A DNA stretch of 46,984 nt from a virus. The translations under genes and the position numbers were made by a program. The notes beneath the pieces were generated by a model that was not told the DNA's origin, made no database searches, and saw only the letters and a program-made list of their open reading frames with translations. Positions 3,387 through 42,532 of the stretch are shown here, piece after piece. Every line of letters begins with the position of its first letter. Position 1 is the stretch's first letter. The stretch lies in the UHGV virus genome UHGV-0142121; one strand, written 5' to 3'.

Positions 3387-6300
3387 TTAAACCGCCTGCA
3401 ACCGCTTCAGTTCGTTGTATTGGCCATCTGATAGTTGCCACATATTGTCAGCCATAAACAGCCCGGCAACCGTCGCCTGTATCAACCGTGGCGGCATAGT
3501 CGCCAGTTGTGCCAGTTCTTCCGGCGTCAGTGCGGTTCTCAGCCATGCAAATGGCACCGGCATCGCAGCGATAGCCTCTTCAATCGTCGTCAGCGTTGCC
3601 TCAATAAATGCCGTCTCAGCAGATCCAGATTGGGATCTTACATCTATATTTGATCGGCAATCGAGATCCGGTTCTTCCGGTGCCCCCACATCCAGTTTCA
3701 TCTGGACAAACGACAGTGATGCCTCGGCGCGACGCGCCAGAATTCCGTGAATGAATTCCCAGGATTCGGGGACGATTGACCACACGTAACCGAGGCCCTG
3801 TGAACGCGGTAGGCGGCGTTTTTGAGTCGCGTAACCGAATGCCTCACAGATCTGTTTGAAAACCGTCTCGGGGCGTTTCTGGCGGCCTTTAGGGTTTATA
3901 TAGCCACCGAACCGCAGGACGTTGTTGAAACGGTCCGCGGTGGTTGGGTCCATAAGTTTGGCCATAGCTTCCGCCATACCTTCCTGGCTGGCTTCACCGG
4001 CGCCGGTATCTGGGTTAATACCGCAGGTGGAGAAATACTCCCTGGCGGCCTTACGGTGCAGCGATGCGTACGTACGCTGGGTTACTTCCATCACCGGGCG
4101 GCTTTGGACGGTGTAGCCGGTTATTCCTGGCTGCATGCGGTCGAACTGCGCATCAGCTGCTTCGCGGTTGAGCGCGGTGATCGTTACAAATTCGTTACGC
4201 GGCCCTTTGCGGAATTGGTAGGTGAACGTGAAAGCCTGCTGCTCACGGTCAATGCGTGCGGCGGTCATTTCATCCATCGTCATCAGTTCGGCCAGCGTCA
4301 GTTTCTTCTTCCCGCCATCGAGCAGGAATTTCAGAGATTCCGGGCTGACATCCAGCATCAACTCTTTTTCGATATCCCAGCGCGCCAGTTGCGCCTGCTC
4401 ATCTTCAGATAGTGATCGCTTGCCCATCAGTTCGTCGCGTTCGTCTTCGTCCGGGGTTTCCACTTCCATATGGCGCAGAACGGTCATATCCCAGACCCGC
4501 TCTTTCGATGCCTTACGCAGTTCTTTGCCGGTTTCGCTGGCCAGCGAGTCTTCGGCCAAGTGGCTGACGTTATAGCCATCGGCGTAGAGAATGCAGATCA
4601 GGTTGTTGGCGAAATCGTTTCTGGCCTGGGCCTCCATCGCGGCAACTTTAAATTTCATGCGGACATAGGTGGTGTCCGCCAGACCAAGGGAAAGGCGGTC
4701 GCCATCCAGGATGGCGTCGGTAAATTCTTCGTTTATCTCGGCGGTTTCCAGCAGTGCCTGCAGGAACCCACGGCGGATGTTGTCGGCGTTCTCTTCGCGT
4801 ACGCCAGGCAGCTTGTTCAGGCCGACCATAAATTCGGTGGCGGTCCTGTCGCGGCGCAGCATCTGAATGGCGTCGGACGGCACTACCTGGCCGCAGAAGC
4901 AGCCGAAATGGCGGGTGAAGTGCCGTTCTTCGATCGAGACGCCAGAACTGATAGCCGGGCTATAAATCAGGCCATCGTAGAGTTTAGCGCGCTGGTTCGG
5001 CGCGTCGGTAAACGCCACGACTTCCTGATCCGGCTTTGTGTCCTGGCTGACGTAAAGCCATTTCTTTTCTGGCCAGCGGTCGCGCAGCTGCAGCAGCAAC
5101 TGTTCGGCAAAATTGGTTGAGTCGGTGGCCAGCAGGAATTTTTCGCCAGCGGCCACAGCTTTCAATACTTCAACCATTATGCGGTCGGTATCGGTGTAAA
5201 GCACGCGGCGCGCTTCGCGCGTACCGTCGACTTTTTTGTACTTCACATCAACCGGCAGCTCGATGACGTGGATCTGTGTCCAGGTCGACAGGCCGGTTTG
5301 TTCGCGTCTGGCCAGCGCCAGTTCGCAGAGGTCTACCAGGATATCGCTGGCGTCCGCATCAACCAGCAGTGCGTGGTCATCGCTGTACGCGATGGAGTCG
5401 ATAAGGCGATTGAACACATCAACCGGGTGCGCCATCGCTTTACCGGAAAGCGTAGCGCGCAGGCCCTGGGTAGCTTCATCCAGGCCAAAGAAATCGTGCT
5501 TGCGCATCAGCGGTTGCCAGCAGCCCTTCACGATTGAATTGATACAGATCGTCAGCTTGCTGGCATACGGCGCCAGTTCCTGATAGCCGGGGTCCTGATA
5601 GTGCAGGATATCGCAATTCATGCGGCGGCCATCGTCGGCACGCGTCATCATGTCCCAGAGGCCACCGATTAGCGAAACGCGGTGCGCAACCGAAACGCCA
5701 CGCTGCGCGCTGTGCATCATAGGGCGCAGCAGGTGCTTGGATTTGCCCGACCCCATGCCGGCACGGACTATTACCGGGCCATTCAGCGCTTTGATGTAAT
5801 CCAGCACGTCTTTGGTCATGTGCGGTGTATCGAACCGCTTATAGGTGATATGATCGGGGCGTATTGCCGGGTTCGTTACGCGCTCGCTGAATGATCGGAA
5901 AGCCTGGGCCTTGTCGCATTTCTGTTTGAAGGCGCGTTTAACGCGGTTATACACGGTACCGTGCAGCGCTTTGTCGGCGCCGAGCTGGTCCAGCTTCATT
6001 TTTATCAGCGAGATCAGCTCCTGCGGGGATAACTTGGACGGGCATTGCATCATGCCGGCATCAATGCAGCGTACCAGCTGGCGTGAGAACGCGCGGCGAT
6101 CGGAAACCGGCGCAACGGCCAGAGACAGCATTTCAGCATCAAAGGAATTGCCTGGCAGCTGCAGGCGGTTCTGTTTTGAAAACAGCTGGCGGTTAGTTTC
6201 GGTGGCACCACGCGCCAGGTGGAGATCGTTGAAATCGCTTAATTCAGTTTCGCTGCTGTCGAAAATCGGGAATGTGCAACGGACCTGCGGGAATTTCTTC

Positions 6301-7376
6301 ATCACGTCGATGCCGACTCTTAACCCGGTATTGCCCTTTCCATTACGGGCCGACTTCTGGTCGTTATCCAGTGCGCACCAGATTTCCATGCCTGGGTACA
6401 GGCTGACCAGCTGATCAACAACCTTGATAACGTTATTTGCTGACACAGCCACGACAACAGCGTCGAAGCGCTTTTTGGCAACGGCAAACACACTGGCGCC
6501 AGTCGCGAAGCCTTCAACAACGCAGATCCTGGTTGCGCCGCGCAGCTGGCCAATGATGTGGCACGAACCAGCAAAGTCACCGGAATCAACAGCGCGGGTC
6601 TGCAGCTTGTCGTTTCTCTCGGTGATTCGCTGCCAGCCAACAATCGGGCCAACGCGAGATTCCCTGTCTTCCCGGCGGTCATCAATATGAGACAGCGGGA
6701 TAGCCATAACAGTTTGTTTTTTAACCGTTTTAGAATTGGGACCATGGTCCCACTGGGTTACGCGCCTGACGTTGCAGTATGAGAAAATGGAGCTGATACC
6801 TTTCTTCACCGCGTATGGCCATGAACCATCTTCTGCCGGTGCGTTGGCGAATGCGGTGGAGAACTGCAGGTATTCGTTCAGGTCAGCGTCGCGGCGCTGC
6901 GACTCCATAAACACAGAGATAGCCTGCTGGCGTTCACGTTCCTGGCGGCGTGCCTCAGCACGTTTACGCTGTTCCAGCTCGCGCGCGGACAGTGGGACCA
7001 CGGTCCCACCGTTCTGTTCTTTGTACCGGCGATATTCGGCTATAAGGAACTGGAAACCACTCCAGGAGCCAGCGTCAGAGCCTTTACATACGAAGTTAAC
7101 AAACGGGTACTTGATGCCTTCCTGCGAACACTCCATGCGGGAGTAGATCTCAACCTTACCTTTCAGCTTTGGCTCAGTAACGGCAGGACCATGATGGGCG
7201 TACTTTGTGAATTTTTCGGCGGCACCGCGAGAGGCAGAAAGTTGAATATCACTGGCGCATTTATGCCAGTCGATGCCGGCAGCGCTCGCAAGATCACTCA
7301 ATTCATTTGATGCCGCGTCAAGCAGCGAAAACGGGTCAGAGTTAAATTTGTGTTGAAAAAAATCCGTTAATTTCAT
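3387..7376 (-). CDS. repA: Replication protein RepA (primase-helicase), about 1329 aa from ATG at 7376; track ORF extends to a TTG at 7388
   Basis: Size and architecture match N15 RepA; Walker A GMGSGKSK; GGTGA ribosome-binding site before the 7376 ATG. Confidence 0.88.
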   Translation of the reverse strand: MKLTDFFQHKFNSDPFSLLDAASNELSDLASAAGIDWHKCASDIQLSASRGAAEKFTKYAHHGPAVTEPKLKGKVEIYSRMECSQEGIKYPFVNFVCKGSDAGSWSGFQFLIAEYRRYKEQNGGTVVPLSARELEQRKRAEARRQERERQQAISVFMESQRRDADLNEYLQFSTAFANAPAEDGSWPYAVKKGISSIFSYCNVRRVTQWDHGPNSKTVKKQTVMAIPLSHIDDRREDRESRVGPIVGWQRITERNDKLQTRAVDSGDFAGSCHIIGQLRGATRICVVEGFATGASVFAVAKKRFDAVVVAVSANNVIKVVDQLVSLYPGMEIWCALDNDQKSARNGKGNTGLRVGIDVMKKFPQVRCTFPIFDSSETELSDFNDLHLARGATETNRQLFSKQNRLQLPGNSFDAEMLSLAVAPVSDRRAFSRQLVRCIDAGMMQCPSKLSPQELISLIKMKLDQLGADKALHGTVYNRVKRAFKQKCDKAQAFRSFSERVTNPAIRPDHITYKRFDTPHMTKDVLDYIKALNGPVIVRAGMGSGKSKHLLRPMMHSAQRGVSVAHRVSLIGGLWDMMTRADDGRRMNCDILHYQDPGYQELAPYASKLTICINSIVKGCWQPLMRKHDFFGLDEATQGLRATLSGKAMAHPVDVFNRLIDSIAYSDDHALLVDADASDILVDLCELALARREQTGLSTWTQIHVIELPVDVKYKKVDGTREARRVLYTDTDRIMVEVLKAVAAGEKFLLATDSTNFAEQLLLQLRDRWPEKKWLYVSQDTKPDQEVVAFTDAPNQRAKLYDGLIYSPAISSGVSIEERHFTRHFGCFCGQVVPSDAIQMLRRDRTATEFMVGLNKLPGVREENADNIRRGFLQALLETAEINEEFTDAILDGDRLSLGLADTTYVRMKFKVAAMEAQARNDFANNLICILYADGYNVSHLAEDSLASETGKELRKASKERVWDMTVLRHMEVETPDEDERDELMGKRSLSEDEQAQLARWDIEKELMLDVSPESLKFLLDGGKKKLTLAELMTMDEMTAARIDREQQAFTFTYQFRKGPRNEFVTITALNREAADAQFDRMQPGITGYTVQSRPVMEVTQRTYASLHRKAAREYFSTCGINPDTGAGEASQEGMAEAMAKLMDPTTADRFNNVLRFGGYINPKGRQKRPETVFKQICEAFGYATQKRRLPRSQGLGYVWSIVPESWEFIHGILARRAEASLSFVQMKLDVGAPEEPDLDCRSNIDVRSQSGSAETAFIEATLTTIEEAIAAMPVPFAWLRTALTPEELAQLATMPPRLIQATVAGLFMADNMWQLSDGQYNELKRLQAV
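6736..6753. repeat. sopC-like palindrome TTGGGACCATGGTCCCAC inside repA coding sequence
   Basis: Near-perfect 18-bp inverted repeat matching the dispersed family; encodes TQWDHGPN in RepA. Confidence 0.7.
7002..7019. repeat. sopC-like palindrome GTGGGACCACGGTCCCAC inside repA coding sequence
   Basis: Core TGGGACCACGGTCCCA, identical to the F sopC inverted repeat as I recall it; encodes GGTVVPL in RepA. Confidence 0.7.
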
Positions 7377-7694: not shown

Positions 7695-8324
7695 CTATCT
7701 GGCCTTAACTGCTATAGATTTAGCCACGCAGATAACGGGATGAATCAAAATAATTTCGTCAAGATCGATTATCACGCGCTGAGATCTGTCGTTCGGCGCG
7801 TCGAGAAACACTTTGCCATCACGCTTCGACGCTAACATCCTAATAAACGGGTCATTACCTGATTTTGTGACAACGACCACATCTTCCCCGGTCACCGGCT
7901 CGCGGTTTGGGTCTGCGATCAGCACTTCACCGATATGATACGGCGCCGCGACGTCGTTATCGACCATCAGGCCATACAGGGCCGCATCCTGAACATTGAT
8001 ATCAACGTATTCCCGGCAGTTCTGCGCCAGGCCGCTATTAATCATTTCCAGGTTGGGGCCTGTCGCGGTTGAACCGATAACAGGGACTCCACGAAACACA
8101 TCGCCGCCGGCACCAGTTAAGATCCACTCAACAGGACGGCCCAGCTCGCGCGCCAGCTTGATAGCCAGATCTAACGCGGGCATAGCATCACTATTTTCCA
8201 GGTGTGAAAGTCCTGCCCCGGTAATACCGACGCGTTCAGCTACGGCTCTCACCGAGAACTTTGATTTATTTCGCTTCTTCAGCTCTTCACGGCGAGCCTT
8301 CAGCCAATCACCACGTTTTTCCAT
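7695..8324 (-). CDS. cB: Prophage repressor CB (CI-like), 209 aa: N-terminal HTH plus C-terminal LexA/S24-type domain
   Basis: HTH-like segment VRAVAERVGITGAGLSHLE; divergent from a cro-like gene; position matches the N15 immB region. Confidence 0.8.
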   Translation of the reverse strand: MEKRGDWLKARREELKKRNKSKFSVRAVAERVGITGAGLSHLENSDAMPALDLAIKLARELGRPVEWILTGAGGDVFRGVPVIGSTATGPNLEMINSGLAQNCREYVDINVQDAALYGLMVDNDVAAPYHIGEVLIADPNREPVTGEDVVVVTKSGNDPFIRMLASKRDGKVFLDAPNDRSQRVIIDLDEIILIHPVICVAKSIAVKAR

Positions 8325-8631: not shown

Positions 8632-9273
8632 ATGGGACAGAATAAACGTCCATCGCGAGACACAATGTCATCAGTGGTTATACGGGCAACCTTACGGATG
8701 CTCGATGAAACCGGCGGCAGTGTCGCACAATTCTCTACAACGCGCTTGATTCCTGCTCTGGAAGTTCAGGGGCTTGTTGATATGGGGTCTGAAGGCATCA
8801 ATGTCACAGATTACATGCGCTGGCGTAGCCGTTGCATTAAGCGAGCACAGCGCGTCCTGGCTGGCGATACACCGATGCCTGCAGATTGGGTGTTAACGTG
8901 GTTGTCATGTCTTCCGGAAGAGTACCGTAACAAGTGCTCTCAGAAGCTGGCAGCGATGCAGGGCCTGCAATGGGTCCGCATGCCTAAGTACAACCGTATT
9001 CGTGTTGATTCAGTCGACGCTGAAATTGACGAGATTACTGTGAAATTCGGTGCCGTTCTCGCCAACTCAGCGCCAGCCCAGGATGGCGTATACGATGGCA
9101 GTGATGACCAGCACGCCCTGAAGCAGCTGCAGAACCGCCTGTATGAGTTGTCGTCATACCTCTATCGGGAAATCCTGAATATAGAAATGGCCACCGGCAT
9201 TAAACCGGACCACGTTGAACTTGGTGCGCTGAGTCCGCTGGGCCATCAAGCAGGGGGCAAATATGCAGTTTAA
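8632..9273 (+). CDS. Hypothetical early protein, 213 aa (possible regulator)
   Basis: First gene after cro in the same operon; no confident motif. Confidence 0.45.
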   Translation: MGQNKRPSRDTMSSVVIRATLRMLDETGGSVAQFSTTRLIPALEVQGLVDMGSEGINVTDYMRWRSRCIKRAQRVLAGDTPMPADWVLTWLSCLPEEYRNKCSQKLAAMQGLQWVRMPKYNRIRVDSVDAEIDEITVKFGAVLANSAPAQDGVYDGSDDQHALKQLQNRLYELSSYLYREILNIEMATGIKPDHVELGALSPLGHQAGGKYAV

Positions 9274-9928
9274 TTTTGTTCGCAACGAGCTTACTGCAGC
9301 GCTCTTGTCGTTCTCAAAATCTCACCGCAATCAGATCGTCGCGATGGCAGAACGTGCGCCACTGCAGAGCCGATTTACTGCAAAGCCGCAGCGTGAAATT
9401 GATATCGATAACGACACTGTCATTGTCATTGATGCCGAGCCAATCAGCTACAGAGAAGGCAAGCGTTACCATACGAGCATGATCCCGGTATCGCCAGCCA
9501 TTTTTAGCCAGGTGTCATGGCGTAGCGCGTTATTGAAAATGCCTGAGCCGTATAAATCCTGGTTGAATTACTGCTACGGCGATTCAATTTCATTTGAATA
9601 TCAAACAATACTGACAACACATATCTGGCATTCCCTGCTGATTAACCTGGCTGAAAGCAAATCGCCAAAAATGAACGGCAAGACTGAAAGCAACTTAAAA
9701 GCACTTGCCTGGTTGGCTCTACAGGAATCAAAAAATTTCATTAACCGCGGCGAGCTTAAATACAGCCAGGAAGAATTGAGCCAGCTATGTGGTGTGAAAT
9801 ATGACCTATGGCGGAAGAATTATAAAAATCGCTGGGATGTCATGTTGGCCTGCAGTGTTCAAATGGATCGGGAGGCGTTAATACATGTCGACCAATTACG
9901 GAAGAAGCATATCAGCAACAGGCGGTGA
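9263..9928 (+). CDS. Hypothetical early protein, 221 aa (antiterminator Q-like role possible by position only)
   Basis: AGGGGG ribosome-binding site; no confident motif. Confidence 0.45.
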   Translation: MQFNFVRNELTAALLSFSKSHRNQIVAMAERAPLQSRFTAKPQREIDIDNDTVIVIDAEPISYREGKRYHTSMIPVSPAIFSQVSWRSALLKMPEPYKSWLNYCYGDSISFEYQTILTTHIWHSLLINLAESKSPKMNGKTESNLKALAWLALQESKNFINRGELKYSQEELSQLCGVKYDLWRKNYKNRWDVMLACSVQMDREALIHVDQLRKKHISNRR

Positions 9929-11387: not shown

Positions 11388-11588
11388 ATGGCATTGGATC
11401 TGTTTATGCAGGGGCCAATGACAGAACAGGAAGCTACGGAGCTGGCAAATAAGTACAAAGCATCAGGACGCCGGGTATCAATAACGGCGTCGTTTCAGCC
11501 AGGTCTTAAATATGTTCAGGTTTATCTGCCAGTCAGCAGATTTCGCCCCAGACAATCAGCGACATATCAACAAAGAATATGGAAATAA
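11388..11588 (+). CDS. Hypothetical protein, 66 aa
   Basis: AGGAA ribosome-binding site; tightly packed in operon. Confidence 0.4.
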   Translation: MALDLFMQGPMTEQEATELANKYKASGRRVSITASFQPGLKYVQVYLPVSRFRPRQSATYQQRIWK

Positions 11589-12514
11589 TGATGGATAATG
11601 CACATAAGACTATTTTACAGCTGTTAATGGCTACATGGCTTAAAAGTGATTTTCGTATTATTGATACGGAAACAACCGGGCTGGAAGATAATGATGAGAT
11701 TATCGAAATCTCGATCATCAATATGCGTGGTGATGTGCTGCTTGATACGCTTGTTAAGCCGACCCGCCCTATCCCCGCAGCTGCGACCGCTATCAACAAC
11801 ATCACCAACGAAATGGTTGCTGATGCCCCATCCTGGCAGGAAGTTTATCCGGCGGTAGTCGCCGCGATTGGTGGCCATAAGTGGCTTGCCTGGAACTCAA
11901 AATTTGATGCCCGGTTGATTACTCAGACCTGCATGATTACTGGCCTTTATAACGATTTGGCACCGGCGGCCATGCTGGAAATGTACAGCAGCATCCATTC
12001 CGGCCATATCGACGCGAAAGAGACTTACAGCCAGTGGTACGGCGCGCTTTCTATGAAGGATAGAAACTTTGTTCGGCAGTCTCTGTCGATGGCAGTAGTT
12101 CAGCAGGGCGTAACGGTCAGTGCTGAAGCTCACCGTTCACTCGCCGACTGCCAGCGCGTTCTCCGCGTACTAGAAAGCGTCTGCAATGATCCACACCTAC
12201 CAGCTGATGGCGCCGACCTTCGCCAAGGTGATGAGTCCGGGCTGGCGCCCTGCCCGTTCTGCTATGGTCCTCCATCGATGTTTGTTCATCACCTGCATGG
12301 CCTCCAGTACAAGCCGTTGTGGAACCCTGCCAACTATGGCGAGGACGGCCTGTATGCCGGCGCCGTTGTTTTCTGTCATGAGTGCGGCGCACATGGCGAA
12401 GAGGCCACCGATGTTGTGTTTGATGATAGCGACGTCGAGCAACTGGAGAACGCCGCCAAAAAGAACTGGAACACGCGCGATAAGCGCCATCAGGACCTTT
12501 ATGAATCCAAATAA
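11579..12514 (+). CDS. DEDDh (DnaQ-like) 3'-5' exonuclease fused to a C-terminal Lar-type zinc ribbon, 311 aa
   Basis: Exo motifs IIDTETTG, LAWNSKFDARL, HRSLADCQ; C-terminus CPFCYG...CHECGAHG...AAKKNWNTR matches the Lar family pattern. Confidence 0.7.
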   Translation: MEIMMDNAHKTILQLLMATWLKSDFRIIDTETTGLEDNDEIIEISIINMRGDVLLDTLVKPTRPIPAAATAINNITNEMVADAPSWQEVYPAVVAAIGGHKWLAWNSKFDARLITQTCMITGLYNDLAPAAMLEMYSSIHSGHIDAKETYSQWYGALSMKDRNFVRQSLSMAVVQQGVTVSAEAHRSLADCQRVLRVLESVCNDPHLPADGADLRQGDESGLAPCPFCYGPPSMFVHHLHGLQYKPLWNPANYGEDGLYAGAVVFCHECGAHGEEATDVVFDDSDVEQLENAAKKNWNTRDKRHQDLYESK

Positions 12515-14079: not shown

Positions 14080-14619
14080 ATGACTGATGCCCAGTTAACA
14101 GACAAGCGCGCGCGCCTCCGCAAAGCCGCTCAAGACTATCAAACAGCATTATCTTGGTATCAAGAAAACCTCGATAACCCAAACGCGGAACAGGATTGCG
14201 ATGAGGCTGCGGCGGCGTTTAAGCGTGAGATAGCCTATCGAGAAATGGACATTATTTCTGACCTGCTGAATGAGATAGACGAGCTTCATGAACACCTGAA
14301 AGTAGTCGAGCCGGTTGGCGGTGATGAGCTTGACCATCTCATCTGGGGGCTGCAGCGCGAAGGATTCCATGCTCGCACGCTAGCTGCATTGGTAGAGCTA
14401 CGCGAGCGCCGGAAAAGTGACGCCGAATGCCGTTCAGCTGATAGCCTTCACGATCAGCTTTCTCGCCTGGCAACACATTCTGCAGAAGAAAGCGCCCAGA
14501 TGGCAGAATGGGATCGCCCTGCTCCGAAAAGCGCCCTTCGCCAGCAGGCTGAGAAAATTGCCGATGATGTGCAGGAACTAATTAAGCGTTTACCCGACGC
14601 AGATCAGGGGGGCGCATGA
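14080..14619 (+). CDS. Hypothetical protein, 179 aa, predicted helical and acidic
   Basis: GGGGAG ribosome-binding site; TAAATG coupling. Confidence 0.45.
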   Translation: MTDAQLTDKRARLRKAAQDYQTALSWYQENLDNPNAEQDCDEAAAAFKREIAYREMDIISDLLNEIDELHEHLKVVEPVGGDELDHLIWGLQREGFHARTLAALVELRERRKSDAECRSADSLHDQLSRLATHSAEESAQMAEWDRPAPKSALRQQAEKIADDVQELIKRLPDADQGGA

Positions 14620-14852
14620 TAGACCGGAATGTCGTATTGATAAACACATTGACGCGCCGAACAATGGCGAGCGTCACTGCCGGCGGTGATGGTTTCATTT
14701 CTACCGGCACGTTGTCGTTTGATGTTGGCCTGAATACCAGGACTATTCGTCGCATGCTCGATAGCGCAGTAGAGTCGGGCGAAGCTGAGCGCCGTTCTAA
14801 CGGGCCAGGCAAGCCATACAGCTATCGCATTCGGGAGGCGGCATGCTCTTAG
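14616..14852 (+). CDS. Hypothetical protein, 78 aa
   Basis: ATGA coupling; GGGGGG ribosome-binding site. Confidence 0.4.
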   Translation: MIDRNVVLINTLTRRTMASVTAGGDGFISTGTLSFDVGLNTRTIRRMLDSAVESGEAERRSNGPGKPYSYRIREAACS

Positions 14853-15469
14853 ATCATCGCAGCCACACCGCCGCTGAGCATCGAGATACCTGGAGAACTG
14901 ACCCGCGCATAGCCGCGGGCCTTTTTGAGCTATTGCGCCCTTGCCATATTGATGCGTGCGCCAGCGCTGAAAACCATCTTCTGCCGGAGTTCTTTACCCG
15001 CGAAGATAATTGCCTGCAGCTGGACTGGCTGGCTGAAACAAAACGTCGCGGCGTACTGCCAGCGCTTTATGCCAACCCGCCATTCTCGAAAGAGGACAGC
15101 CGAGCGGCTACTCCGCACAATGGCATGGGAAACTTCTTCCGTAAGGCGCGCGTAGAGGCTGAGCAGGGTGTTTATTCTCAATGGCTTTTCCGTGCACGCC
15201 CTGGGGAGAACTGGTTCCCCTGGCAACTAGCCAGCCGCATCTGGTTTATCGTTGGGCGTGTGGGCTTTGTTGATTCTGCCACAGGGAAAATCGACAACGA
15301 GCAGACAGAGAATCATTGTGTAGCCGAATTTATCCCTGGAGAGCATCCGATTCTTGCGGCTGGGCTACCAATAAACCGTGATGACATCCTGGCCGCAGGC
15401 ATGGCTGCAATCAGTTCTGGAAAATATGGATTGATAACAATCCGATACAAACAACTATCGATGAGATAA
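14843..15469 (+). CDS. Phage Dam-like DNA N6-adenine methyltransferase, 208 aa
   Basis: NPPF catalytic motif (YANPPFS) and overall pattern of the phage N6A methyltransferase family; GGAGG ribosome-binding site. Confidence 0.65.
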   Translation: MLLDHRSHTAAEHRDTWRTDPRIAAGLFELLRPCHIDACASAENHLLPEFFTREDNCLQLDWLAETKRRGVLPALYANPPFSKEDSRAATPHNGMGNFFRKARVEAEQGVYSQWLFRARPGENWFPWQLASRIWFIVGRVGFVDSATGKIDNEQTENHCVAEFIPGEHPILAAGLPINRDDILAAGMAAISSGKYGLITIRYKQLSMR

Positions 15470-15491
15470 ATATTTTCAAAATCAGCTTGGA

Positions 15492-15551
15492 AGATCCCCT
15501 TTCTCTATTTACACTGTATAAATAAACAGTATCATCAAGGAAAGGGGATCT
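15492..15551 (+). promoter_or_regulatory. 12-bp inverted repeat (AGATCCCCTTTC / GAAAGGGGATCT) whose 3' arm is the ribosome-binding site of the downstream gene; 36-nt loop carries a LexA box
   Basis: Perfect 12-bp complementarity; 3' arm ends 2 nt before GTG 15554. Confidence 0.5.
15512..15531. promoter_or_regulatory. LexA (SOS) box CACTGTATAAATAAACAGTA
   Basis: CTGT-N8-ACAG with AT-rich spacer, 17/20 to consensus TACTGTATATATATACAGTA; close to my recollection of the E. coli dinI box; overlaps a TATAAA -10-like element. Confidence 0.6.
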
Positions 15552-15553
15552 CG

Positions 15554-15790
15554 GTGAGAGTAGAAATACTTATTGATCAAGAAGCTAAGGTTTCAGAAAA
15601 AGTAATGGCCGCTCTTTCAGAGCAGGTAAAGCAGCGCCTTTCCCCTCAGTTCGAAAAATTCACATTGCGCATAGCAAAGAGCAGTAGCTCTGCGGTGCAG
15701 ATCACCGGCACTAAATCAGCAGATGAGCACAGTGCAGCTATGGACATCTTACAGAGCGTCTGGGAAGACGATAGCTGGCTGCCGGATTAA
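15554..15790 (+). CDS. DinI-like protein, 78 aa
   Basis: Aligns by eye with E. coli DinI (MRVEI..., ITGTKSADEHSAAMDILQSVWEDDSWL vs IGATKEDKQRISEILQETWESADDWF); preceded by a LexA box. Confidence 0.65.
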   Translation: MRVEILIDQEAKVSEKVMAALSEQVKQRLSPQFEKFTLRIAKSSSSAVQITGTKSADEHSAAMDILQSVWEDDSWLPD

Positions 15791-15817
15791 GTAGCTAGGT
15801 TGCAGGAGGTTGAATTG

Positions 15818-16081
15818 ATGACAGACGACACATGCAGTTCTGATTTACTCGCGTTGAAACTACAGCAGCTAAACGCATTGATTCAGGTTGTTCGTCGGAC
15901 GCTGGATAGCAGTGAAGGCAGCATTTATCTGAACGAGGCCATTAATTTAATGGGCGCTGCTGGAGAGATGACTCAAGACTGTGAAGCCATACGAAAGCGG
16001 ATAGATGTTGAGTTGTATCAGCAGAGCAGCAAGTACTACAGCCTGTATGGCTCTAGCTCTGATCGCCAGTCTGCCGGGTGA
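15818..16081 (+). CDS. Hypothetical protein, 87 aa, co-transcribed with the DinI-like gene (candidate antirepressor)
   Basis: AGGAGG ribosome-binding site 8 nt before ATG 15818; role inferred from SOS context only. Confidence 0.4.
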   Translation: MTDDTCSSDLLALKLQQLNALIQVVRRTLDSSEGSIYLNEAINLMGAAGEMTQDCEAIRKRIDVELYQQSSKYYSLYGSSSDRQSAG

Positions 16082-16168
16082 TCCAGATGCTTTGATATGT
16101 CCTATTTCCCAGCCTGTCGATGGCGGATAGGTTGGATATTCCAGGCGTGTTGTGGCGACGCGGATAAA

Positions 16169-16186
16169 TTGGGACCATGGTCCCAA
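16169..16186. repeat. sopC-like palindrome TTGGGACCATGGTCCCAA (perfect)
   Basis: Perfect 18-bp palindrome just upstream of the putative late promoter. Confidence 0.75.
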
Positions 16187-16194
16187 CCTGGAGC

Positions 16195-16283
16195 TTGCAA
16201 AAACTTCACAAAAAAATTAAACTTTTTCTAAGTTGGGTTTTCTGTAACCAGCTTATTCTAACCGCCTTCATGGCGGTTTTTTT
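16195..16283 (+). promoter_or_regulatory. Putative late promoter (TTGCAA ... TAAACT) plus short leader ending in an intrinsic terminator (16261-16283)
   Basis: Promoter-like hexamers followed about 40 nt later by hairpin ACCGCC-TTCAT-GGCGGT and seven T, upstream of the methyltransferase-lysis operon; architecture resembles Q-dependent late promoters. Confidence 0.35.
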
Positions 16284-16419
16284 GTGCCTTGAAAATGGGC
16301 GCTGCAGCATGTGTGACCATGCCACAGCTTTCAGCCCATGCCGCGGGACAGGGTGAAACAAGGCCCATTGCTGATGCGCAACAGCAAAACGAGCCTATCA
16401 AAAAAGGCTGATAAACACC

Positions 16420-17481
16420 ATGGAAAACACTGTAAATATAAACAGTGCCGTTCTTGTGCGTGCTGATACTCTGGCATACATAAAAACTCTCCCGGACAAC
16501 AGTATCGATGCCATCATCACCGACCCGCCCTACTACAAAGTAAAGGCGGCATCGTGGGATAACCAATGGCCGACGGCTGTTGATTATCTGGCATGGCTCG
16601 ATGAGTGCTTGGCGGAATTCTGGCGGGTGCTGAAGCCGGCTGGCTCTCTGTACGTATTCTGCGGTCCTAAGCTGTCATCTGACACAGAACTGCTGATAGG
16701 CGAGCGGTTCAACGTGCTAAACCATATCATCTGGGCCAAACCGAGCGGTCGTTGGAACGGCTGCCGGAAAGAGGATTTGAGATCGTATTTCCCGGCGACT
16801 GAGCACATTGTGTTTGCTGAACATTATGGCTCTGAGGGATTCGCAAAAGGTAATGCCGGGTATGCGACGAAGTGCCGGGAACTGAAAAGCCAGGTCTTTG
16901 CGCCGTTGATTGAATACTTCCGAACTACCCGGCAGCGCTTGGGCATTTCGGCTGCAGAGATCAACGCGGCGACGGGAACCCAAATGTGCAGCCACTGGTT
17001 TAGTTCAAGCCAATGGCAACTGCCCAGCGAAAAACAATACCAGGCTCTTCAGGCGTTGTTTAACCGGGTAGCGAAAGAGAAGCAAACCTCTGGCTTACTG
17101 TCCGACCACGCCGCGCTGGAAGCGGAATACAACGAGTTATCGGAACAGTATTCAGAACTGGTAAAGCAGTACAGCGATTTGCGTGAGCAGTACGAAAACC
17201 TGCGGCGCCCATTCAGGGTAACAAAGGATGTACCGCATACGAACGTCTGGACGTACCCACCAGTTCAGCATTATCCCGGTAAACATCCATGTGAAAAGCC
17301 GATAGAGATGATGATCGATATTATCTCGGCCAGTACTCGACCTGGCGACCTGGTAGCCGACTTCTTCATGGGTTCGGGTGCAACGGTTAAAGCAGCTATG
17401 CAGCTGGGCCGGCGTGCTATCGGCGTTGAGCTGGAAGAGGAGCGCTTCTTACAGACTGTCTCAGAAATTACAGAACTATAA
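16420..17481 (+). CDS. DNA methyltransferase, 353 aa, first gene of the late operon
   Basis: DPPY catalytic motif (IITDPPYY) near the N-terminus and AdoMet-binding FFMGSGAT near the C-terminus. Confidence 0.75.
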   Translation: MENTVNINSAVLVRADTLAYIKTLPDNSIDAIITDPPYYKVKAASWDNQWPTAVDYLAWLDECLAEFWRVLKPAGSLYVFCGPKLSSDTELLIGERFNVLNHIIWAKPSGRWNGCRKEDLRSYFPATEHIVFAEHYGSEGFAKGNAGYATKCRELKSQVFAPLIEYFRTTRQRLGISAAEINAATGTQMCSHWFSSSQWQLPSEKQYQALQALFNRVAKEKQTSGLLSDHAALEAEYNELSEQYSELVKQYSDLREQYENLRRPFRVTKDVPHTNVWTYPPVQHYPGKHPCEKPIEMMIDIISASTRPGDLVADFFMGSGATVKAAMQLGRRAIGVELEEERFLQTVSEITEL

Positions 17482-17485
17482 CCAC

Positions 17486-17508
17486 AGCCCCGCATTGCGG
17501 GGCTTTTT
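17486..17508 (+). terminator. Intrinsic terminator after the methyltransferase gene
   Basis: 8-bp GC-rich stem AGCCCCGC/GCGGGGCT followed by TTTTT. Confidence 0.6.
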
Positions 17509-17539
17509 ATTGCCTGCGCTGCAGGTTTCGGGTTGCGTC

Positions 17540-30967: not shown

Positions 30968-33935
30968 TGTTGCATCGTTGGCTGTTGCGCTTCACCTGAA
31001 CTCGGCCAGCTTCAAATCGCAGTTCGCTGATGCGATGCGGTCGGCTGACAGTGGGGCGCAACAGTTCAATAGAAAGGCGCAGGCGGATGCCAAAAATACC
31101 CGCCAGTCATACGAGGGAGTCAGCAAAGGGATCACCGGTCTCGATGCTGATTTTAACAAACTTGGCCGCACGGTTGATAAGCGTCTGACCGGGCTTGATG
31201 AGATGCGCGGCCTGCTGGCCAGCATCTCTGCCGGTAGTAACGTTGCCGGCAGTTCTATAGCAAACGCGCTGGTTACTTCGCTCAGCGAGGGTATGAGTAC
31301 CGCGCTATCAAACAGCGTGAATGGCCTGAAGAACCAGCGACAGGCCCAGATTGAGTTCACCGCGGCGCAGGTTGATGCGGCGCGCGGCGTAATTGAGAAC
31401 GCCAGGAGCCTCCGCGAAGAGGCCATCGCCAAACAGAACGCCGCGGTGAAAACTATTGAGGCGGCGAAGGCCGATCGTGAACGTGCATTCGCACTCGATG
31501 AGTATTACGCCAAACAGGCCGAGGTAAACAAACAGTTCGGGTTGACGGTTGATTATCAGGAAGAGCACGTTAAAAACTCGCGTGTGATTAATGAAGCCAA
31601 CCTGGCGGAAGCCAAAGGGAAAGGCAGCCTGGCAGAAGCGACAAAAGCCGTGCTGGCCGCCGATATTGCCGAATCCAACGGTAAGCAGCAGCTGGCCACA
31701 TCGACCCGTAATCTGGTGGTTGTCAGCCAGGAACTCTCGCTCGGCCAGCGTGCTGCTGCGACCAGCGCGGGTCTATTGCGTGGCGCGCTGGCGATGGTCG
31801 GCGGTCCTGTCGGCCTTGCCGTGATGGCGGCTGTCGGCGCTGGTACCGCTATTTATACCGCGTTCTCGCGCAGCCAGGCGGAGATCGACGGGTTCAATAA
31901 GGCGCTGCAGAAGTCCGGGCAGCAGTCCGTGATGAACGTGATGTACCTGCAGAACCTGGTTTCCCGTCTGGGCGATACCGCCGGTGCGGTTAAGTCGGTC
32001 ACTGCCGCTGTCGGTGCCGGGTTCGGCGGCGATATTCTGGATCAGGTGGCGGGGCTTGGCACCCGTATGGAAGAAATTGGCCAGAGTTCTGATGACCTGG
32101 TTACGCTGCTTTCCAGTCTCAGCGGCGACCCGCTGAACGCGCTGCAAAAGCTGACCGATCAGGGAATTTTGCTGAACAGCAGCATGGTCGATCAGATTGT
32201 TACCCTGAACCGCCAGGGGAAAACGACTGAGGCTACCGCGCTGCTGCAGCAGGCGGCCATGGATGACGTTTCCCAGAAGCTCAAAGAGCAGGAAAGCCAG
32301 GTCGGCGTGCTGGAAGGGGCGTGGAAGTCCCTGAAAGGGTTTGTTGCTGATGCTTTTAAGACCATGGGAGATGCGCACATAGCGACCGCCCAGGCGATGG
32401 CCGCTGGTGCCAATGTCGATCTGACGCCAACCGAAGACCCCGCCATCAAACAGCGTGAAGAAGCTGAAAAACTCTACCAGCAGCGGAAGAAAGAGCGAGA
32501 GGAACTGACGAAGCGCCTCAAGGATGAAAACACCCTTTCTGGCCTGATGAAAGCGGGCGTATCGCGCGAAAAAGAGCGAGCTGATGCTATCGCACTGGTT
32601 AACGCGAACTATACGAAAGGCACGGCGGAGTACACGCAGGCGATGGCTGGCGTGAACAAGATGTACGCCGAGCAGAAAAAAGCGCGTGAGAAAGCCTACA
32701 GCGATGATGCTGCCACTCGCCGCCTGCAGGAGCTGAAGCAGGAAGAGACGGTGCTGCGTACGCAGAACGACCAGACGGAAGAACTGACGAACAGCGAGCG
32801 TAAGCTGCTGCAGTTCAATCAGGAAGTTGCCGATCTGAAAGAAAAGCGCATCCTGACCGCTGGCCAGCGCAGTCTGCTGGCGCAGGAAACAGAGCTTCGT
32901 AACCAGCTGCAGATCAACGCCAGTCTGGACCGAGCCAACGCGCAGCGGAAAATCGGCCTGCAGATGCAGGAGAAGAACCAGGAACTGTACCGCTCAACCA
33001 TCCAGTTGCAGCAGGAGTACAGCAACCGGGTCGCGCAGATGACGATGAGTTCAACTGCATATGACCAGATGGTTGCAGAGCAGCAAGTTCGTGAACGATT
33101 TGCAAAACTGAGGGAAGAGCTTGATAAAACCGTAAGTGATCACGCTTCTGAACAGTATCGCCAACAAACGGAAGTATTACGCACTGAAGAGCAGAAGCAG
33201 TTCGATATTATTTTGAGCGGTGCTAAGCGAAAAAAAGAAGTGGAAGGCTCTTGGATTGACGGTATGAAAAGCGGGCTACAGGAGTGGCGTGAAGATGCTG
33301 AAAACCAGTTTGCTATGACGCGAGATATTGCAGTTAATGCGATGGACGGCATGAGCAATAGCATCTGGAATTTAGCCTCTAAAGGGAAGGCTGATGTTAA
33401 GTCATTTGCAGTTTCAGCTATCAATGATATCGGGCAGATGATTACCAAAATGCTGGTCATGAATGCGGTCAAATCAGGCGCATCTGCATTTGGCATAAGT
33501 AGCATGTTTGGCTGGGCAGATGGTGGCTATACAGGTGATGGTGGCAAGCATGATGTTGCCGGCGTCGTGCATAAGGGGGAATGGGTAGTACCTCAGAACG
33601 TCGTGCAAAAGCCTGGCATGCTGAATTTCCTGAACCAGCTGACATACGGCAGCGGGTATGCAGACGGTGGTTTAGTCGGTGGTAGCGTTGCCCGCCCGTC
33701 CAGCAATGAGGATGCCGGCAGCGATAATCGAAACATCCGCGTTACGGTCAACATCCCGCTGCAGGTGATTAAGCAGGGAGCCGCAGCAACTCAGCAATCA
33801 AAAGATCAGGGGAAAACGAGTGATGAAGCTCTAAGCCTCGAGGCGCTATCCCAGATTAAGCAGGTCTGCTATAGCGTGCTGGACCGTGAGTTATCGAATA
33901 ACGGCATGATCCTGAACGCAATCAAGGGGGCGTGA
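30957..33935 (+). CDS. Tail tape measure protein, 992 aa
   Basis: Long Ala/Gln-rich helical protein with Gly-rich C-terminal region, after G/GT. Confidence 0.85.
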   Translation: MAADVASLAVALHLNSASFKSQFADAMRSADSGAQQFNRKAQADAKNTRQSYEGVSKGITGLDADFNKLGRTVDKRLTGLDEMRGLLASISAGSNVAGSSIANALVTSLSEGMSTALSNSVNGLKNQRQAQIEFTAAQVDAARGVIENARSLREEAIAKQNAAVKTIEAAKADRERAFALDEYYAKQAEVNKQFGLTVDYQEEHVKNSRVINEANLAEAKGKGSLAEATKAVLAADIAESNGKQQLATSTRNLVVVSQELSLGQRAAATSAGLLRGALAMVGGPVGLAVMAAVGAGTAIYTAFSRSQAEIDGFNKALQKSGQQSVMNVMYLQNLVSRLGDTAGAVKSVTAAVGAGFGGDILDQVAGLGTRMEEIGQSSDDLVTLLSSLSGDPLNALQKLTDQGILLNSSMVDQIVTLNRQGKTTEATALLQQAAMDDVSQKLKEQESQVGVLEGAWKSLKGFVADAFKTMGDAHIATAQAMAAGANVDLTPTEDPAIKQREEAEKLYQQRKKEREELTKRLKDENTLSGLMKAGVSREKERADAIALVNANYTKGTAEYTQAMAGVNKMYAEQKKAREKAYSDDAATRRLQELKQEETVLRTQNDQTEELTNSERKLLQFNQEVADLKEKRILTAGQRSLLAQETELRNQLQINASLDRANAQRKIGLQMQEKNQELYRSTIQLQQEYSNRVAQMTMSSTAYDQMVAEQQVRERFAKLREELDKTVSDHASEQYRQQTEVLRTEEQKQFDIILSGAKRKKEVEGSWIDGMKSGLQEWREDAENQFAMTRDIAVNAMDGMSNSIWNLASKGKADVKSFAVSAINDIGQMITKMLVMNAVKSGASAFGISSMFGWADGGYTGDGGKHDVAGVVHKGEWVVPQNVVQKPGMLNFLNQLTYGSGYADGGLVGGSVARPSSNEDAGSDNRNIRVTVNIPLQVIKQGAAATQQSKDQGKTSDEALSLEALSQIKQVCYSVLDRELSNNGMILNAIKGA

Positions 33936-41038: not shown

Positions 41039-42397
41039 ATGTCAGCAGGAACCTTAACCCTGACGAATAACTCTGCTGCGGTCGCTGGTAGCGGGACCGC
41101 GTTTACTACCGAGGTGGCGGCCGGAGATTTTATTGTTGTCACTGTCGGCGGCGTTCCCTATACACTCCCGATTAAATCAGTGGAAAGCGGTACAGCATTG
41201 ACGCTGGTCAGCAATTTCACCGGGCCAACACAGTCTGGCGCTGCCTGGTTTGCTGTTCCGCGCGTGGCGCTTAATATGGTTACCGCGGCGCTGGTGACTC
41301 AAAGCGCGGAGGCACTGCGCGGACTGAACTACGATAAGCAGAACTGGCAGCAGTTTTTTACTGCCGATGGTGATGTAACGATTGCGCTTCCTGATACCAG
41401 CCAGACAACGGGGCCATCAGCGAAAAAGTTAATTAAAAGTGTTAACGATAAAGCAGATAAAACAGCGCTTGATGAGTACGCCAAAAAGGGCAGCAACAGC
41501 GATATCACGAGTCTTTCCGGCCTAACTACTGCCCTAAGTGTTAAGCAGGGCGGGACAGGAGGTGACAATAAGACTGGCGCATGTAAAGGTATAGGTGCCA
41601 TGAATGCGGAATTGTCGGTGCCTAATGCCTCGGCGATAGCCCTGCCATCTGGATCGTTCTTCCTGGGTGATGGTCAGGAGGCTGGAGGGGCAGGTAAGCC
41701 ATTCACCTATTCGATGATTCTGCAATTATCTGCTGGTGGCGCAAGTCCTACAGGAGACTGGGTGCAGGTGGCATATCAGATGTTTGGTACCGGCGCTCCG
41801 AAATACCGAACACGTGTTGATTCTCCACCATCTCTGTCTAACTGGTTCGACTTCCTTGTCCGTGGAGTAAATACTACGGTGGACTCCAATGGATTCTACA
41901 AAACTTCATCGCCGATTATTAAAATTTGGGGGGATGGGACCTCTGAATTAAACGATGAGTCCGAAGGGGCAACCGTTGTCCGAATGGATACAGGGGTTTA
42001 TAAAGTATCTGGCGTCATGGGGTTTAACTCCAGTCCGGAGTGGGGAGGCGTGGAGGGCGGATATTCAGTACCGCAAAACGGCAACGGGCTGCCTCTGTTG
42101 TGGCTGGATTACGAAATAGCATCTGATGGTGATATTACAGTCCGAACGTATCATCGTACACACAGTAATGCGCCAGAATTTGCCCGAAACCTGATTGGTA
42201 TTAAACATGACGATGGTTCATTTACCGAAACGGTTAAAGATGGCGACCCGGTGGATATCCCGGCTGGTCGCTGGATAGATCTGCGCGTTGAGATGCCCCA
42301 CAACAGCATCTGGAATATTAAACAGATCGAGGCACAGGAAGCCAGAGAAAAAGCTGAGCGCGAGCGCCAGGAAAATCAGCAGGATGCCCAGTTGTAA
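41039..42397 (+). CDS. Tail fibre protein, 452 aa
   Basis: Position after J; Gly/Ser/Thr-rich with KQGGTGG motif; C-terminal coiled-coil tail. Confidence 0.6.
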   Translation: MSAGTLTLTNNSAAVAGSGTAFTTEVAAGDFIVVTVGGVPYTLPIKSVESGTALTLVSNFTGPTQSGAAWFAVPRVALNMVTAALVTQSAEALRGLNYDKQNWQQFFTADGDVTIALPDTSQTTGPSAKKLIKSVNDKADKTALDEYAKKGSNSDITSLSGLTTALSVKQGGTGGDNKTGACKGIGAMNAELSVPNASAIALPSGSFFLGDGQEAGGAGKPFTYSMILQLSAGGASPTGDWVQVAYQMFGTGAPKYRTRVDSPPSLSNWFDFLVRGVNTTVDSNGFYKTSSPIIKIWGDGTSELNDESEGATVVRMDTGVYKVSGVMGFNSSPEWGGVEGGYSVPQNGNGLPLLWLDYEIASDGDITVRTYHRTHSNAPEFARNLIGIKHDDGSFTETVKDGDPVDIPAGRWIDLRVEMPHNSIWNIKQIEAQEAREKAERERQENQQDAQL

Positions 42398-42532
42398 AAA
42401 TGGATAGTTGCCGCAACCACACCGTATGCAAGAGCATGATTGCGGCCGACTGGCGAACGTTCGATAGTGCGAGTATTGAATGATTGCCAGTCACGGCGGA
42501 TTGTACTTAAGCAATATGACGGTTCAAGGCGT

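Follow-up and report, generated by a model that had tools for sequence, protein, structure and literature searches.

The window analysed here is the whole 46,984 bp stretch of UHGV virus genome UHGV-0142121, and all coordinates refer to this full stretch. It is a linear plasmid prophage (telomere phage-plasmid) of the N15/PY54/phiKO2 type. An earlier note had described two methylase open reading frames (ORFs), one Dam-like with an NPPF motif and one with DPPY and a C-terminal FxGxG, and both were recovered with exact coordinates, the described motifs and matches in Pfam and PHROG. When all six frames were scanned for [DNS]PP[YFWH] in ORFs of 100 amino acids (aa) or more, two sites only were returned, NPPF at nt 15074 and DPPY at nt 16522. 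These two genes, hereafter MTase1 and MTase2, are therefore the sole amino-methyltransferase candidates in the window. The features that bear on them most directly are as follows.

14843-15469, plus strand: MTase1, a small N6-adenine methyltransferase of the PF05869 'Dam' family, 208 aa, with NPPF at nt 15074
16195-16223, plus strand: putative late promoter TTGCAA-17-TAAACT (-35 at 16195-16200, -10 at 16218-16223)
16224-16238, plus strand: conserved block TTTTTCTAAGTTGGG at the start of the transcribed region, almost unchanged between N15, phiKO2, PY54 and the window
16260-16285, plus strand: intrinsic terminator directly 3′ of the late promoter, from a terminator scan and alignment with the annotated N15 and phiKO2 terminators
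16289-16412, plus strand: structured RNA leader of 124 nt directly 5′ of MTase2 (covariance model R1, 121 bits)
16420-17481, plus strand: MTase2, a beta-class adenine methyltransferase of the M.EcoGII family, 353 aa, with DPPY followed by FxGxG
16430-16445: LexA-box-like palindrome CTGTAAATATAAACAG within codons 4-9 of MTase2
17486-17512, plus strand: strong intrinsic terminator directly 3′ of MTase2 (8-bp stem with 7 G-C pairs, followed by a T-run)

MTase2 was assigned to PF01555 (N6_N4_Mtase) with an expect value (E) of 7.5e-43 and 147.5 bits, above the gathering threshold of 26.7, and to PHROG 67 (3e-91). Its DPPY (residues 35-38) precedes FxGxG (FFMGSGAT, near residue 315) with a recognition domain between the two, as in beta-class amino-methyltransferases, and its two end blocks match the PDB sequences of RsrI, CcrM, MboIIA and DpnA. 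Over residues 1-353 it is 62% identical to M.EcoGII, 66% to SUPREM (Anc284) and 71% to the ancestral reconstruction Anc250, the three sequences having been taken from Table S1 of PMC11551740 with some machine-reading errors. The match to M.EcoGII is full-length, including the central target-recognition and charged linker region, and is far closer than the level of M.PflMI, the nearest site-specific enzyme, which is only 27% identical to M.EcoGII (PMC11551740). M.EcoGII is a prophage-borne beta-class enzyme of 349 aa that methylates adenine in any context (PMC5778455). Moreover, all purified reconstructed ancestors methylated both DNA and RNA, and non-specificity was shown for M.EcoGII and the variants tested (PMC11551740). 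MTase2 is of similar length to M.EcoGII (353 versus 349 aa) and shares with it and with M.EcoGI, both from prophages of E. coli O104:H4, the DPPY motif, central recognition domain, charged helical linker and FxGxG. However, 38% of its residues differ from those of M.EcoGII, its carrier is a linear plasmid prophage and its non-specific activity is a prediction only. Since MTase2 falls deep inside the M.EcoGII cluster, it most likely methylates adenine independently of context, with little or no sequence specificity.

Orthologues of MTase2 occupy the same place in related phages. It is 80% identical to phiKO2 gp52, 75% to PY54 gp60 and 60% to the full-length N15 gp52, and 62-63% identical to the 'DNA methylase' encoded next after Q in Shiga toxin (Stx) phages. 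In the Stx phages examined the methylase lies downstream of Q, as MTase2 does, and is 93% identical to M.EcoGII; the enzyme of Stx phage 1720a-02 has this value, and a very similar homologue in that phage had been reported (PMC5778455). Terminators are annotated 3′ of the late methylase gene in N15 and phiKO2 at the position of the one at 17486-17512. In the N15 record (NC_001901) gene 52 is annotated from 41621 as a protein of 284 aa that lacks DPPY, the annotated start being too far downstream. The frame 41387-42475, from the ATG at 41387, encodes the full-length MTase2 orthologue; a frameshift was suspected but ruled out by tblastn, which gave a single continuous frame from 41387.

MTase1 matched PF05869 (Dam) with E 9.2e-20 and 71.4 bits, far over the cut-off of 28.1, and PHROG 111 'DNA methyltransferase' (8e-46). 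Family membership was tested on the invariant residues DxWxT, D37, N44, NPP[YF]S, W124, R139 and F142, all of which are present. In an alignment of seven sequences, including T1 Dam, HP1 Dam, the early methylase of 1720a-02 and PY54 gp55, MTase1 keeps every family-invariant position (D15, W17, T19, D37, N44, N56, W62, N78-P79-P80, S82, W124, R139 and F142). Twenty-five close relatives, at 69-97% identity, show no sign of decay; where given, the source names of their contigs suggest Raoultella, Salmonella, Serratia and Yersinia, plus one Komagataeibacter record. MTase1 is therefore a bona fide PF05869 family member, although not demonstrably an equivalog, and is probably active as a methylase. 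T1 Dam and HP1 Dam, whose GATC specificity is the family precedent, are like MTase1 small proteins without an obvious separate recognition domain and carry the same invariant residues. However, MTase1 shares only 22-26% identity with them and has an insertion after NPPF, common to the Stx-phage type, that they lack. GATC specificity is thus not transferable to MTase1 with confidence from family membership. A PDB sequence search with MTase1 returned no match.

That both genes lack a restriction partner, as the earlier note had it, agrees with our scan of the flanking ORFs, in which no nuclease domain was found with Pfam or PHROG, although most of these ORFs have no Pfam match and a novel nuclease would escape such a search. 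The only names assigned to them were DinI, anti-repressor and DUF4406, the remainder being labelled 'unknown'. Both methylases are therefore orphan (solitary) in the sense that a partner nuclease is undetected rather than excluded. An HNH gene near the terminase was seen in related contigs only.

The pairing itself is not new. PY54 has carried the annotation of paired partnerless methylases for two decades, in the same order, as genes 55 (68% identical to MTase1) and 60 (75% identical to MTase2), and a late operon that begins with a methylase is standard in N15, phiKO2 and Stx phages, so that the finding as first stated is an ordinary one. PY54 and vB_YenS_P840 resemble the window in having a Dam-family gene, a dinI-like gene, antA, an intergenic region with a partition site, the late promoter and terminator and a beta-class methylase, but PY54 has two extra ORFs (58 and 59) between antA and gene 60. 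N15 and phiKO2 have the late methylase (gene 52) in the same place without an early Dam-family gene, and N15 has in addition a cytosine methylase (gene 58) that is not in the window. Among the 114 loci listed with MTase2 homology, those with both methylases are all PY54-like, and phiKO2-like, N15, Serratia and Vibrio elements have the late gene alone. Stx lambdoid phage 1720a-02 has an independent combination, namely a PF05869-type gene in the early (nin) region and an EcoGII-type gene right after Q. These gene arrangements suggest that the two-methylase design is known and recurrent and that the early gene is an optional part of it.

We next consider the timing of the two genes, for which the following neighbouring features are needed.

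9263-9928, plus strand: Q-type late antiterminator gene, 221 aa (PF06323 Phage_antiter_Q, E 3.9e-42)
15490-15551, plus strand: 12-bp inverted repeat AGATCCCCTTTC / GAAAGGGGATCT, seen in the sequence, which brackets the dinI promoter-like site
15508-15535, plus strand: sigma-70-like promoter site TTTACA-16-TATCAT (promoter scan, 10 of 12 matches)
15514-15529: LexA-box-like sequence CTGTATAAATAAACAG overlapping the dinI promoter-like site, a good match to the LexA consensus (binding is predicted only)
15554-15790, plus strand: DinI-like gene with a GTG start (PF06183, E 1.9e-15; PHROG 189)
15818-16081, plus strand: AntA-like antirepressor gene (PHROG 10889 'anti-repressor', 6e-33), at the same position as PY54 antA

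The ORFs 14080-14619, 14616-14852 and 14843-15469 overlap by 4 and 10 nt, and MTase1 is therefore coupled to the plus-strand gene string that follows the repressor and includes Q. This arrangement suggests that MTase1 is translationally coupled to the end of an early/middle operon starting at cro-Q. The Q family (PF06323) is also called as a gene in identical public contigs. A Q gene and a late promoter closely trailed by an intrinsic terminator are both found, as in a Q-antiterminated late operon, and antitermination at this site is predicted. The N15 and phiKO2 promoter and terminator annotations can be aligned base for base with the window (the annotated N15 promoter has -35 TTGGCA and -10 TATCTT), and the intergenic region is also alignable with PY54. 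The terminator at 16260-16285 is the presumed target of Q antitermination, and by analogy with the lambda model the TTTTTCTAAGTTGGG block might be where Q engages or pausing occurs. In Stx phages, Q, terminator, leader and methylase follow one another in the same order. By synteny, MTase2 has the late-region position of the M.EcoGII family, after the late promoter and terminator, and would be the first, Q-dependent gene of the late operon. It had been called the first gene after the late promoter in the earlier note, and this holds by homology. The claim of different timing stands insofar as the genes belong to different transcription units (early/middle versus Q-dependent late); the times themselves are predicted from gene order and homologous promoter and terminator annotation.

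The description of MTase1 as the last gene of the early operon needs qualification, as the DinI-like and AntA-like genes lie before the late promoter, although they have a promoter-like site of their own, in the 85-nt gap 3′ of MTase1. The AntA-like gene call was taken from identical public contigs. The LexA-box-like sequence at dinI is kept in 7 of 8 MTase1-carrying loci checked. The inverted repeat has a predicted fold of -27.3 kcal/mol, and in six related lineages the sequences of its arms differ yet their complementarity is kept. Its 3′ arm carries the DinI ribosome-binding site and its 5′ arm is complementary to it, so that the 5′ arm could act as an anti-Shine-Dalgarno sequence in read-through RNA. 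As only read-through RNA contains this arm, RNA from the early operon would not allow dinI-antA to be translated, and the arrangement suggests that transcripts from the SOS promoter do allow it. On this basis dinI-antA is read as a putative SOS-controlled antirepressor unit, and MTase1 would be the last expressed gene of the early operon in the anti-Shine-Dalgarno sense. Its position is likened to that of HP1 dam, the final gene of the HP1 early operon, just 5′ of a terminator.

Identity across the 134 nt that separate the terminator from the MTase2 start is 84-91% among N15-like phages, compared with only 75-82% for their methylase proteins. A 38-codon ORF from 16295 within this region was rejected as coding, given 1-nt indels in relatives, a stop after five codons in phiKO2 and an unrelated peptide in Stx phages. 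Instead, the region contains a structured RNA leader, in which an invariant 5-bp closing helix (UGGGC/GCCCA) surrounds a hairpin that is long and variable, together with a short helix; two further hairpins and a conserved GAGCCUAUCAAAA block come next. Stx phages, Serratia and Acerihabitans prophages and IMG/VR contigs have the same element 5′ of the gene, with changed helix sequences. It was found at positions 3924-4052 of one related locus (L003), 31590-31718 (minus strand) of another (L005), 41257-41379 of N15 (L004) and at approximately 200 other loci. Leader-bearing loci of the E. coli type reach 100% local identity to whichever of MTase2 and M.EcoGII matches better, and we read these as matches to M.EcoGII with the same leader upstream.

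Several tests support the structure. RNAalifold on a plain MAFFT alignment missed the long hairpin, the arms being misaligned, and a hand-written structure with covariance-model realignment was used instead. On an alignment of 32 sequences the hand-drawn five-helix structure beats all controls. The covariance model gave exactly one match per locus, always on the strand of the gene and upstream of it, with none elsewhere in 1.2 Mb, and it also found Vibrio-type loci outside the training set (E ~1e-10 to 6e-5). In 47 distinct realigned leaders 80.5% of cells pair, compared with 28-47% with slid partners, and 23 of 30 pairs show double changes, although both counts lean towards the structure because the realignment was fitted to the model. 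The covariation score is 0.366, against no more than 0.139 for slid partners and 0.155 ± 0.008 for shuffled alignments, and none of 500 shuffles reached 0.366. The 5′ segment of the leader can also pair with an earlier GCCCAU (92% pairable, with wobble changes only), and pairing of AUGGGC with either of two conserved GCCCAU segments would fit a two-state switch. In Rfam 15 nothing overlapped the window leader at E up to 1, and for five related loci at E up to 5 there was nothing credible, only sub-threshold matches centred on the upstream terminator.

The leader is closely tied to the gene. IMG/VR was scanned with a DNA pattern from the leader alone, and at least 120 loci were returned. Among the matches listed, 118 of 121 leader instances are followed, on the same strand and no more than 400 nt away, by an EcoGII-family N-terminus; of the other three, two reach the end of the contig and in one the gene is deleted. 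In one IMG/VR contig (L146, 2145-2446) the leader is fused to the last ~68 methylase codons, the gene having an internal deletion and the leader being retained. The ATG lies exactly 22 nt past the GAGCCTA block in 75 of the 79 unique sequences among the matches listed, and in the leader-bearing sequences compared there is no normal Shine-Dalgarno sequence 5′ of it. Vibrio phage-plasmid-like loci (L016, L019, L029, L076, L079 and others; ~5690-5860) have the leader ~150-300 nt, not 22 nt, 5′ of the aligned methylase start, and may have an extra element or a different start between leader and methylase.

The palindrome in codons 4-9 is conserved with the leader. Sites of the form CTGT-W8-ACAG occur only twice in the window (15514-15529 and 16430-16445) and in none of 100 shuffles. 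At the codon 4-9 site, 26 of 84 unique gene starts retain CTG-N10-CAG, as do 78 of the 79 unique leader-bearing sequences among the matches listed, across N15-like, Stx and other phages. One locus (L075) keeps it though the peptide differs (NTGYSSS), both half-sites having changed symmetrically. As an RNA hairpin the palindrome would have only 4 bp in Stx phages, and a protein-binding site is therefore the more consistent reading. It lies ~200 nt downstream of the late promoter, in coding sequence, and LexA binding to it is putative; an SOS promoter that might explain this second LexA-like box was sought by eye and none was convincing.

We tentatively suggest that the leader, the fixed-distance start without a Shine-Dalgarno sequence and the codon 4-9 palindrome form an undescribed cis-regulatory cassette. 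It would be specific to M.EcoGII-family 'hypermethylase' genes in N15-like, Stx-lambdoid and Vibrio phages, and would serve as an RNA switch, or as an element responding to a protein or a ligand, to control the timing and the amount of translation of a genome-wide adenine methylase toxic to the host after Q antitermination. Alternatively, leader and palindrome might not regulate the methylase at all and be conserved through horizontal transfer of a cassette, or as, for example, a processed trans-acting small RNA. This would be in keeping with the occurrence of the terminator-leader-gene cassette in unrelated backbones (N15-like, Stx lambdoid and Vibrio elements), and the short PR' transcript of Stx phages is known to act as a small RNA (PMC7547250). 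However, double compensatory changes at 23 of 30 pairs are not accounted for by recent transfer alone, and these changes, the fixed 22-nt start spacing (75/79) and the near-absolute gene linkage among the matches listed argue for a role in cis. We consider the alternative unlikely. Translation of the phage Mu gene mom, which is late and toxic, is controlled via an RNA hairpin at its start, and by analogy mom offers a functional precedent for a structured leader before a harmful modification gene. However, mom is not a methylase and the leader at 16289-16412 has no similarity to the mom/com region.

From what was observed above, namely which genes and families are present, their synteny, and how the leader is conserved and covaries, we regard it as fairly likely that the plasmid prophage uses two partnerless adenine methyltransferases, produced at different stages of the lytic cycle, to modify its own DNA. 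The enzyme activities and specificities, the timing and every regulatory role would then be as follows. In the lysogen the repressor would hold the cro-Q operon, and hence MTase1, off, and the late promoter would yield just a terminated RNA of ~55 nt. After induction, the early operon would supply MTase1, an exonuclease with a Lar-type domain (11579-12514), other functions and Q, and MTase1 would act on replicating DNA. Because the terminator immediately trails the late promoter, MTase2 would be read only when Q lets the polymerase pass; Q-modified polymerase would continue past 16260-16285 and transcribe the leader and MTase2. How much MTase2 is translated would be set by the leader, and possibly by clearance of LexA, and leader, start without a Shine-Dalgarno sequence and LexA-like palindrome would probably add further control over the amount of MTase2. 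The enzyme, harmful if constitutive, would thus be silent in the lysogen and would heavily methylate progeny DNA shortly before packaging, so that hypermethylated progeny would be protected from many adenine-sensitive restriction systems in the next host.

Published observations on relatives fit this scheme. M.EcoGII is not expressed in the lysogen, and its constitutive expression is deleterious, the clones being sick (PMC5778455). Hia5, Hin1523 and Nma1821, at the mom position of Mu-like prophages, are non-specific adenine methylases, and these enzymes and Mu mom represent late-expressed, broad-spectrum DNA modification against many restriction systems (PMC3299994). In P840, lysis and lysogeny on a permissive host still occur with an insertion in the orthologue of the late gene (PMC10612081), as expected for an accessory anti-restriction function. 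The protein encoded at 11579-12514, with its Lar restriction-alleviation domain, may be a further anti-restriction function. An anti-restriction reading of the pair is reasonable.

Several points weigh against this scheme. The early methylase seems redundant if MTase2 methylates every adenine, and a MTase1 homologue lies within 6 kb upstream in only 12 of the 114 listed loci with MTase2 homology (~10 distinct elements). The activity and target of MTase1 are uncertain when judged by homology: whilst its identity to PY54 gp55 is 68%, that to the T1, HP1 and 1720a-02 enzymes is only 22-29%, and at 64 bits it does not reach the TIGR01712 equivalog cut-off of 97.05 (NCBIfam). Its AlphaFold2 model is of low confidence, with a pLDDT of 66; confidence is low across the first 60 residues, where the presumed cofactor-binding motif lies, and the model is too weak to judge the presence of a recognition domain. 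GATC and, strongly, CTAG are under-represented in the window (observed/expected 0.60 and 0.29), and N15 and 1720a-02 have the same values, with or without a Dam-family gene; because N15 is just as depleted in GATC (0.60) although it has no MTase1, nothing in the composition points to a GATC-specific role. For MTase2, 62% identity does not prove that non-specificity is retained. Moreover, the late promoter has 8 of 12 consensus positions and is below the promoter-scan threshold, and the predicted timing depends on gene order and on promoter and terminator annotations that are labelled 'putative' in the relatives.

A different account of the same pair is that both are sequence-specific methylases with different motifs, one guarding replicating and the other packaged DNA against particular host restriction. 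Consistent with this, the genes belong to different families (PF05869 and PF01555) and different transcription units, and phage methylases are generally assumed to counter restriction (PMC5778455). Nevertheless, MTase2 is 62-71% identical to non-specific enzymes or to ancestors that methylate DNA and RNA, whereas the closest site-specific enzyme stands at 27%, and we find this account rather improbable. The different specificity classes proposed in the earlier note therefore survive as different families, the difference probably being one between a possibly site-specific and a non-specific enzyme. As a non-specific enzyme also covers the sites of the early enzyme, methylation of the same motif by both, which had been offered as a refutation, is not suited to that purpose.

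It is also conceivable that MTase1 is not a working DNA methylase, being an inactive relic or acting on RNA or another substrate, with only the late enzyme modifying the genome. Its score under the TIGR01712 cut-off, its 22-29% identity to the T1, HP1 and Stx-phage enzymes, the poorly modelled N-terminus and its absence from most relatives would all agree with this. In addition, a prophage 'DNA methylase' of the MT-A70 family, from an Stx phage, proved to prefer 16S rRNA (PMC10810198), a precedent that was set aside, the MT-A70 enzyme being unrelated. However, all family-invariant residues are kept, 25 relatives of several genera are 69-97% identical and the Pfam score is far over the threshold, which makes this quite improbable. 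Epigenetic control of phage promoters, also proposed earlier, found no support in the analysis. That one or both enzymes mainly control phage or host expression, by promoter methylation or by timing the lysis-lysogeny switch, and do not chiefly guard against restriction, is very improbable. Dam-type methylation does regulate some phage genes, such as Mu mom, and each arm of the inverted repeat around the dinI promoter-like site contains GATC (15493 and 15546). On the other hand, the sequences of these arms vary and no GATC pattern is conserved at regulatory sites in relatives. P840 can do without the late gene in both lysis and lysogeny, methylation without specificity makes a poor regulatory signal, and the enterobacterial hosts suggested by related contigs are Dam-positive as a rule.

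A late methylase of the M.EcoGII family in telomere phage-plasmids predicts virion DNA heavily modified with N6-methyladenine (6mA). Such modification would matter for host range, for sensitivity to methyl-adenine-dependent restriction and for how these plasmid prophages spread in Klebsiella, Salmonella and Yersinia. In the literature searched, no paper named both 'phage-plasmid' and 'M.EcoGII'. The undescribed leader and palindrome cassette is a noteworthy by-product of the analysis. M.EcoGII is a widely used laboratory enzyme, and the gene-linked leader offers a testable handle on its silencing and switch-on, a question not treated in PMC5778455 or PMC11551740.

Lastly, the gene layout of the window is that of an N15-type linear plasmid prophage, with the following features.

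213-2114: ORF at the telN position, its identity being suggested by the N15 layout
minus strand: 1,333-aa ORF at the repA position, likewise named after the N15 layout
7695-8324, minus strand: helix-turn-helix repressor
11579-12514, plus strand: exonuclease and Lar-type protein of the early operon, with an RNase T-type domain and a C-terminal PF14354 (E 1.3e-11)
16170-16185: partition-site-like palindrome TGGGACCATGGTCCCA, just 5′ of the late promoter and one of nine copies

Megablast against phage records found no near-identical relative of the window. Sensitive blastn gave distant matches only, in which the region groups with phiKO2-like Klebsiella phages and with Yersinia phages PY54 and P840. 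The exact sequences of both methylase proteins were found on ~40-45 kb contigs in dozens of public assemblies. The TGGGACCATGGTCCCA palindrome has nine dispersed copies in the window, four of them perfect, against 0.04 expected (at 6737, 6993, 10193, 16170, 19646, 22482, 28197, 34720 and 38696), and a domain scan identified a SopB-like protein encoded in the window. By analogy with N15 the nine palindromes are presumably SopB centromere sites, and the phiKO2 record has a 'putative plasmid partitioning site' immediately 5′ of the phiKO2 late promoter.

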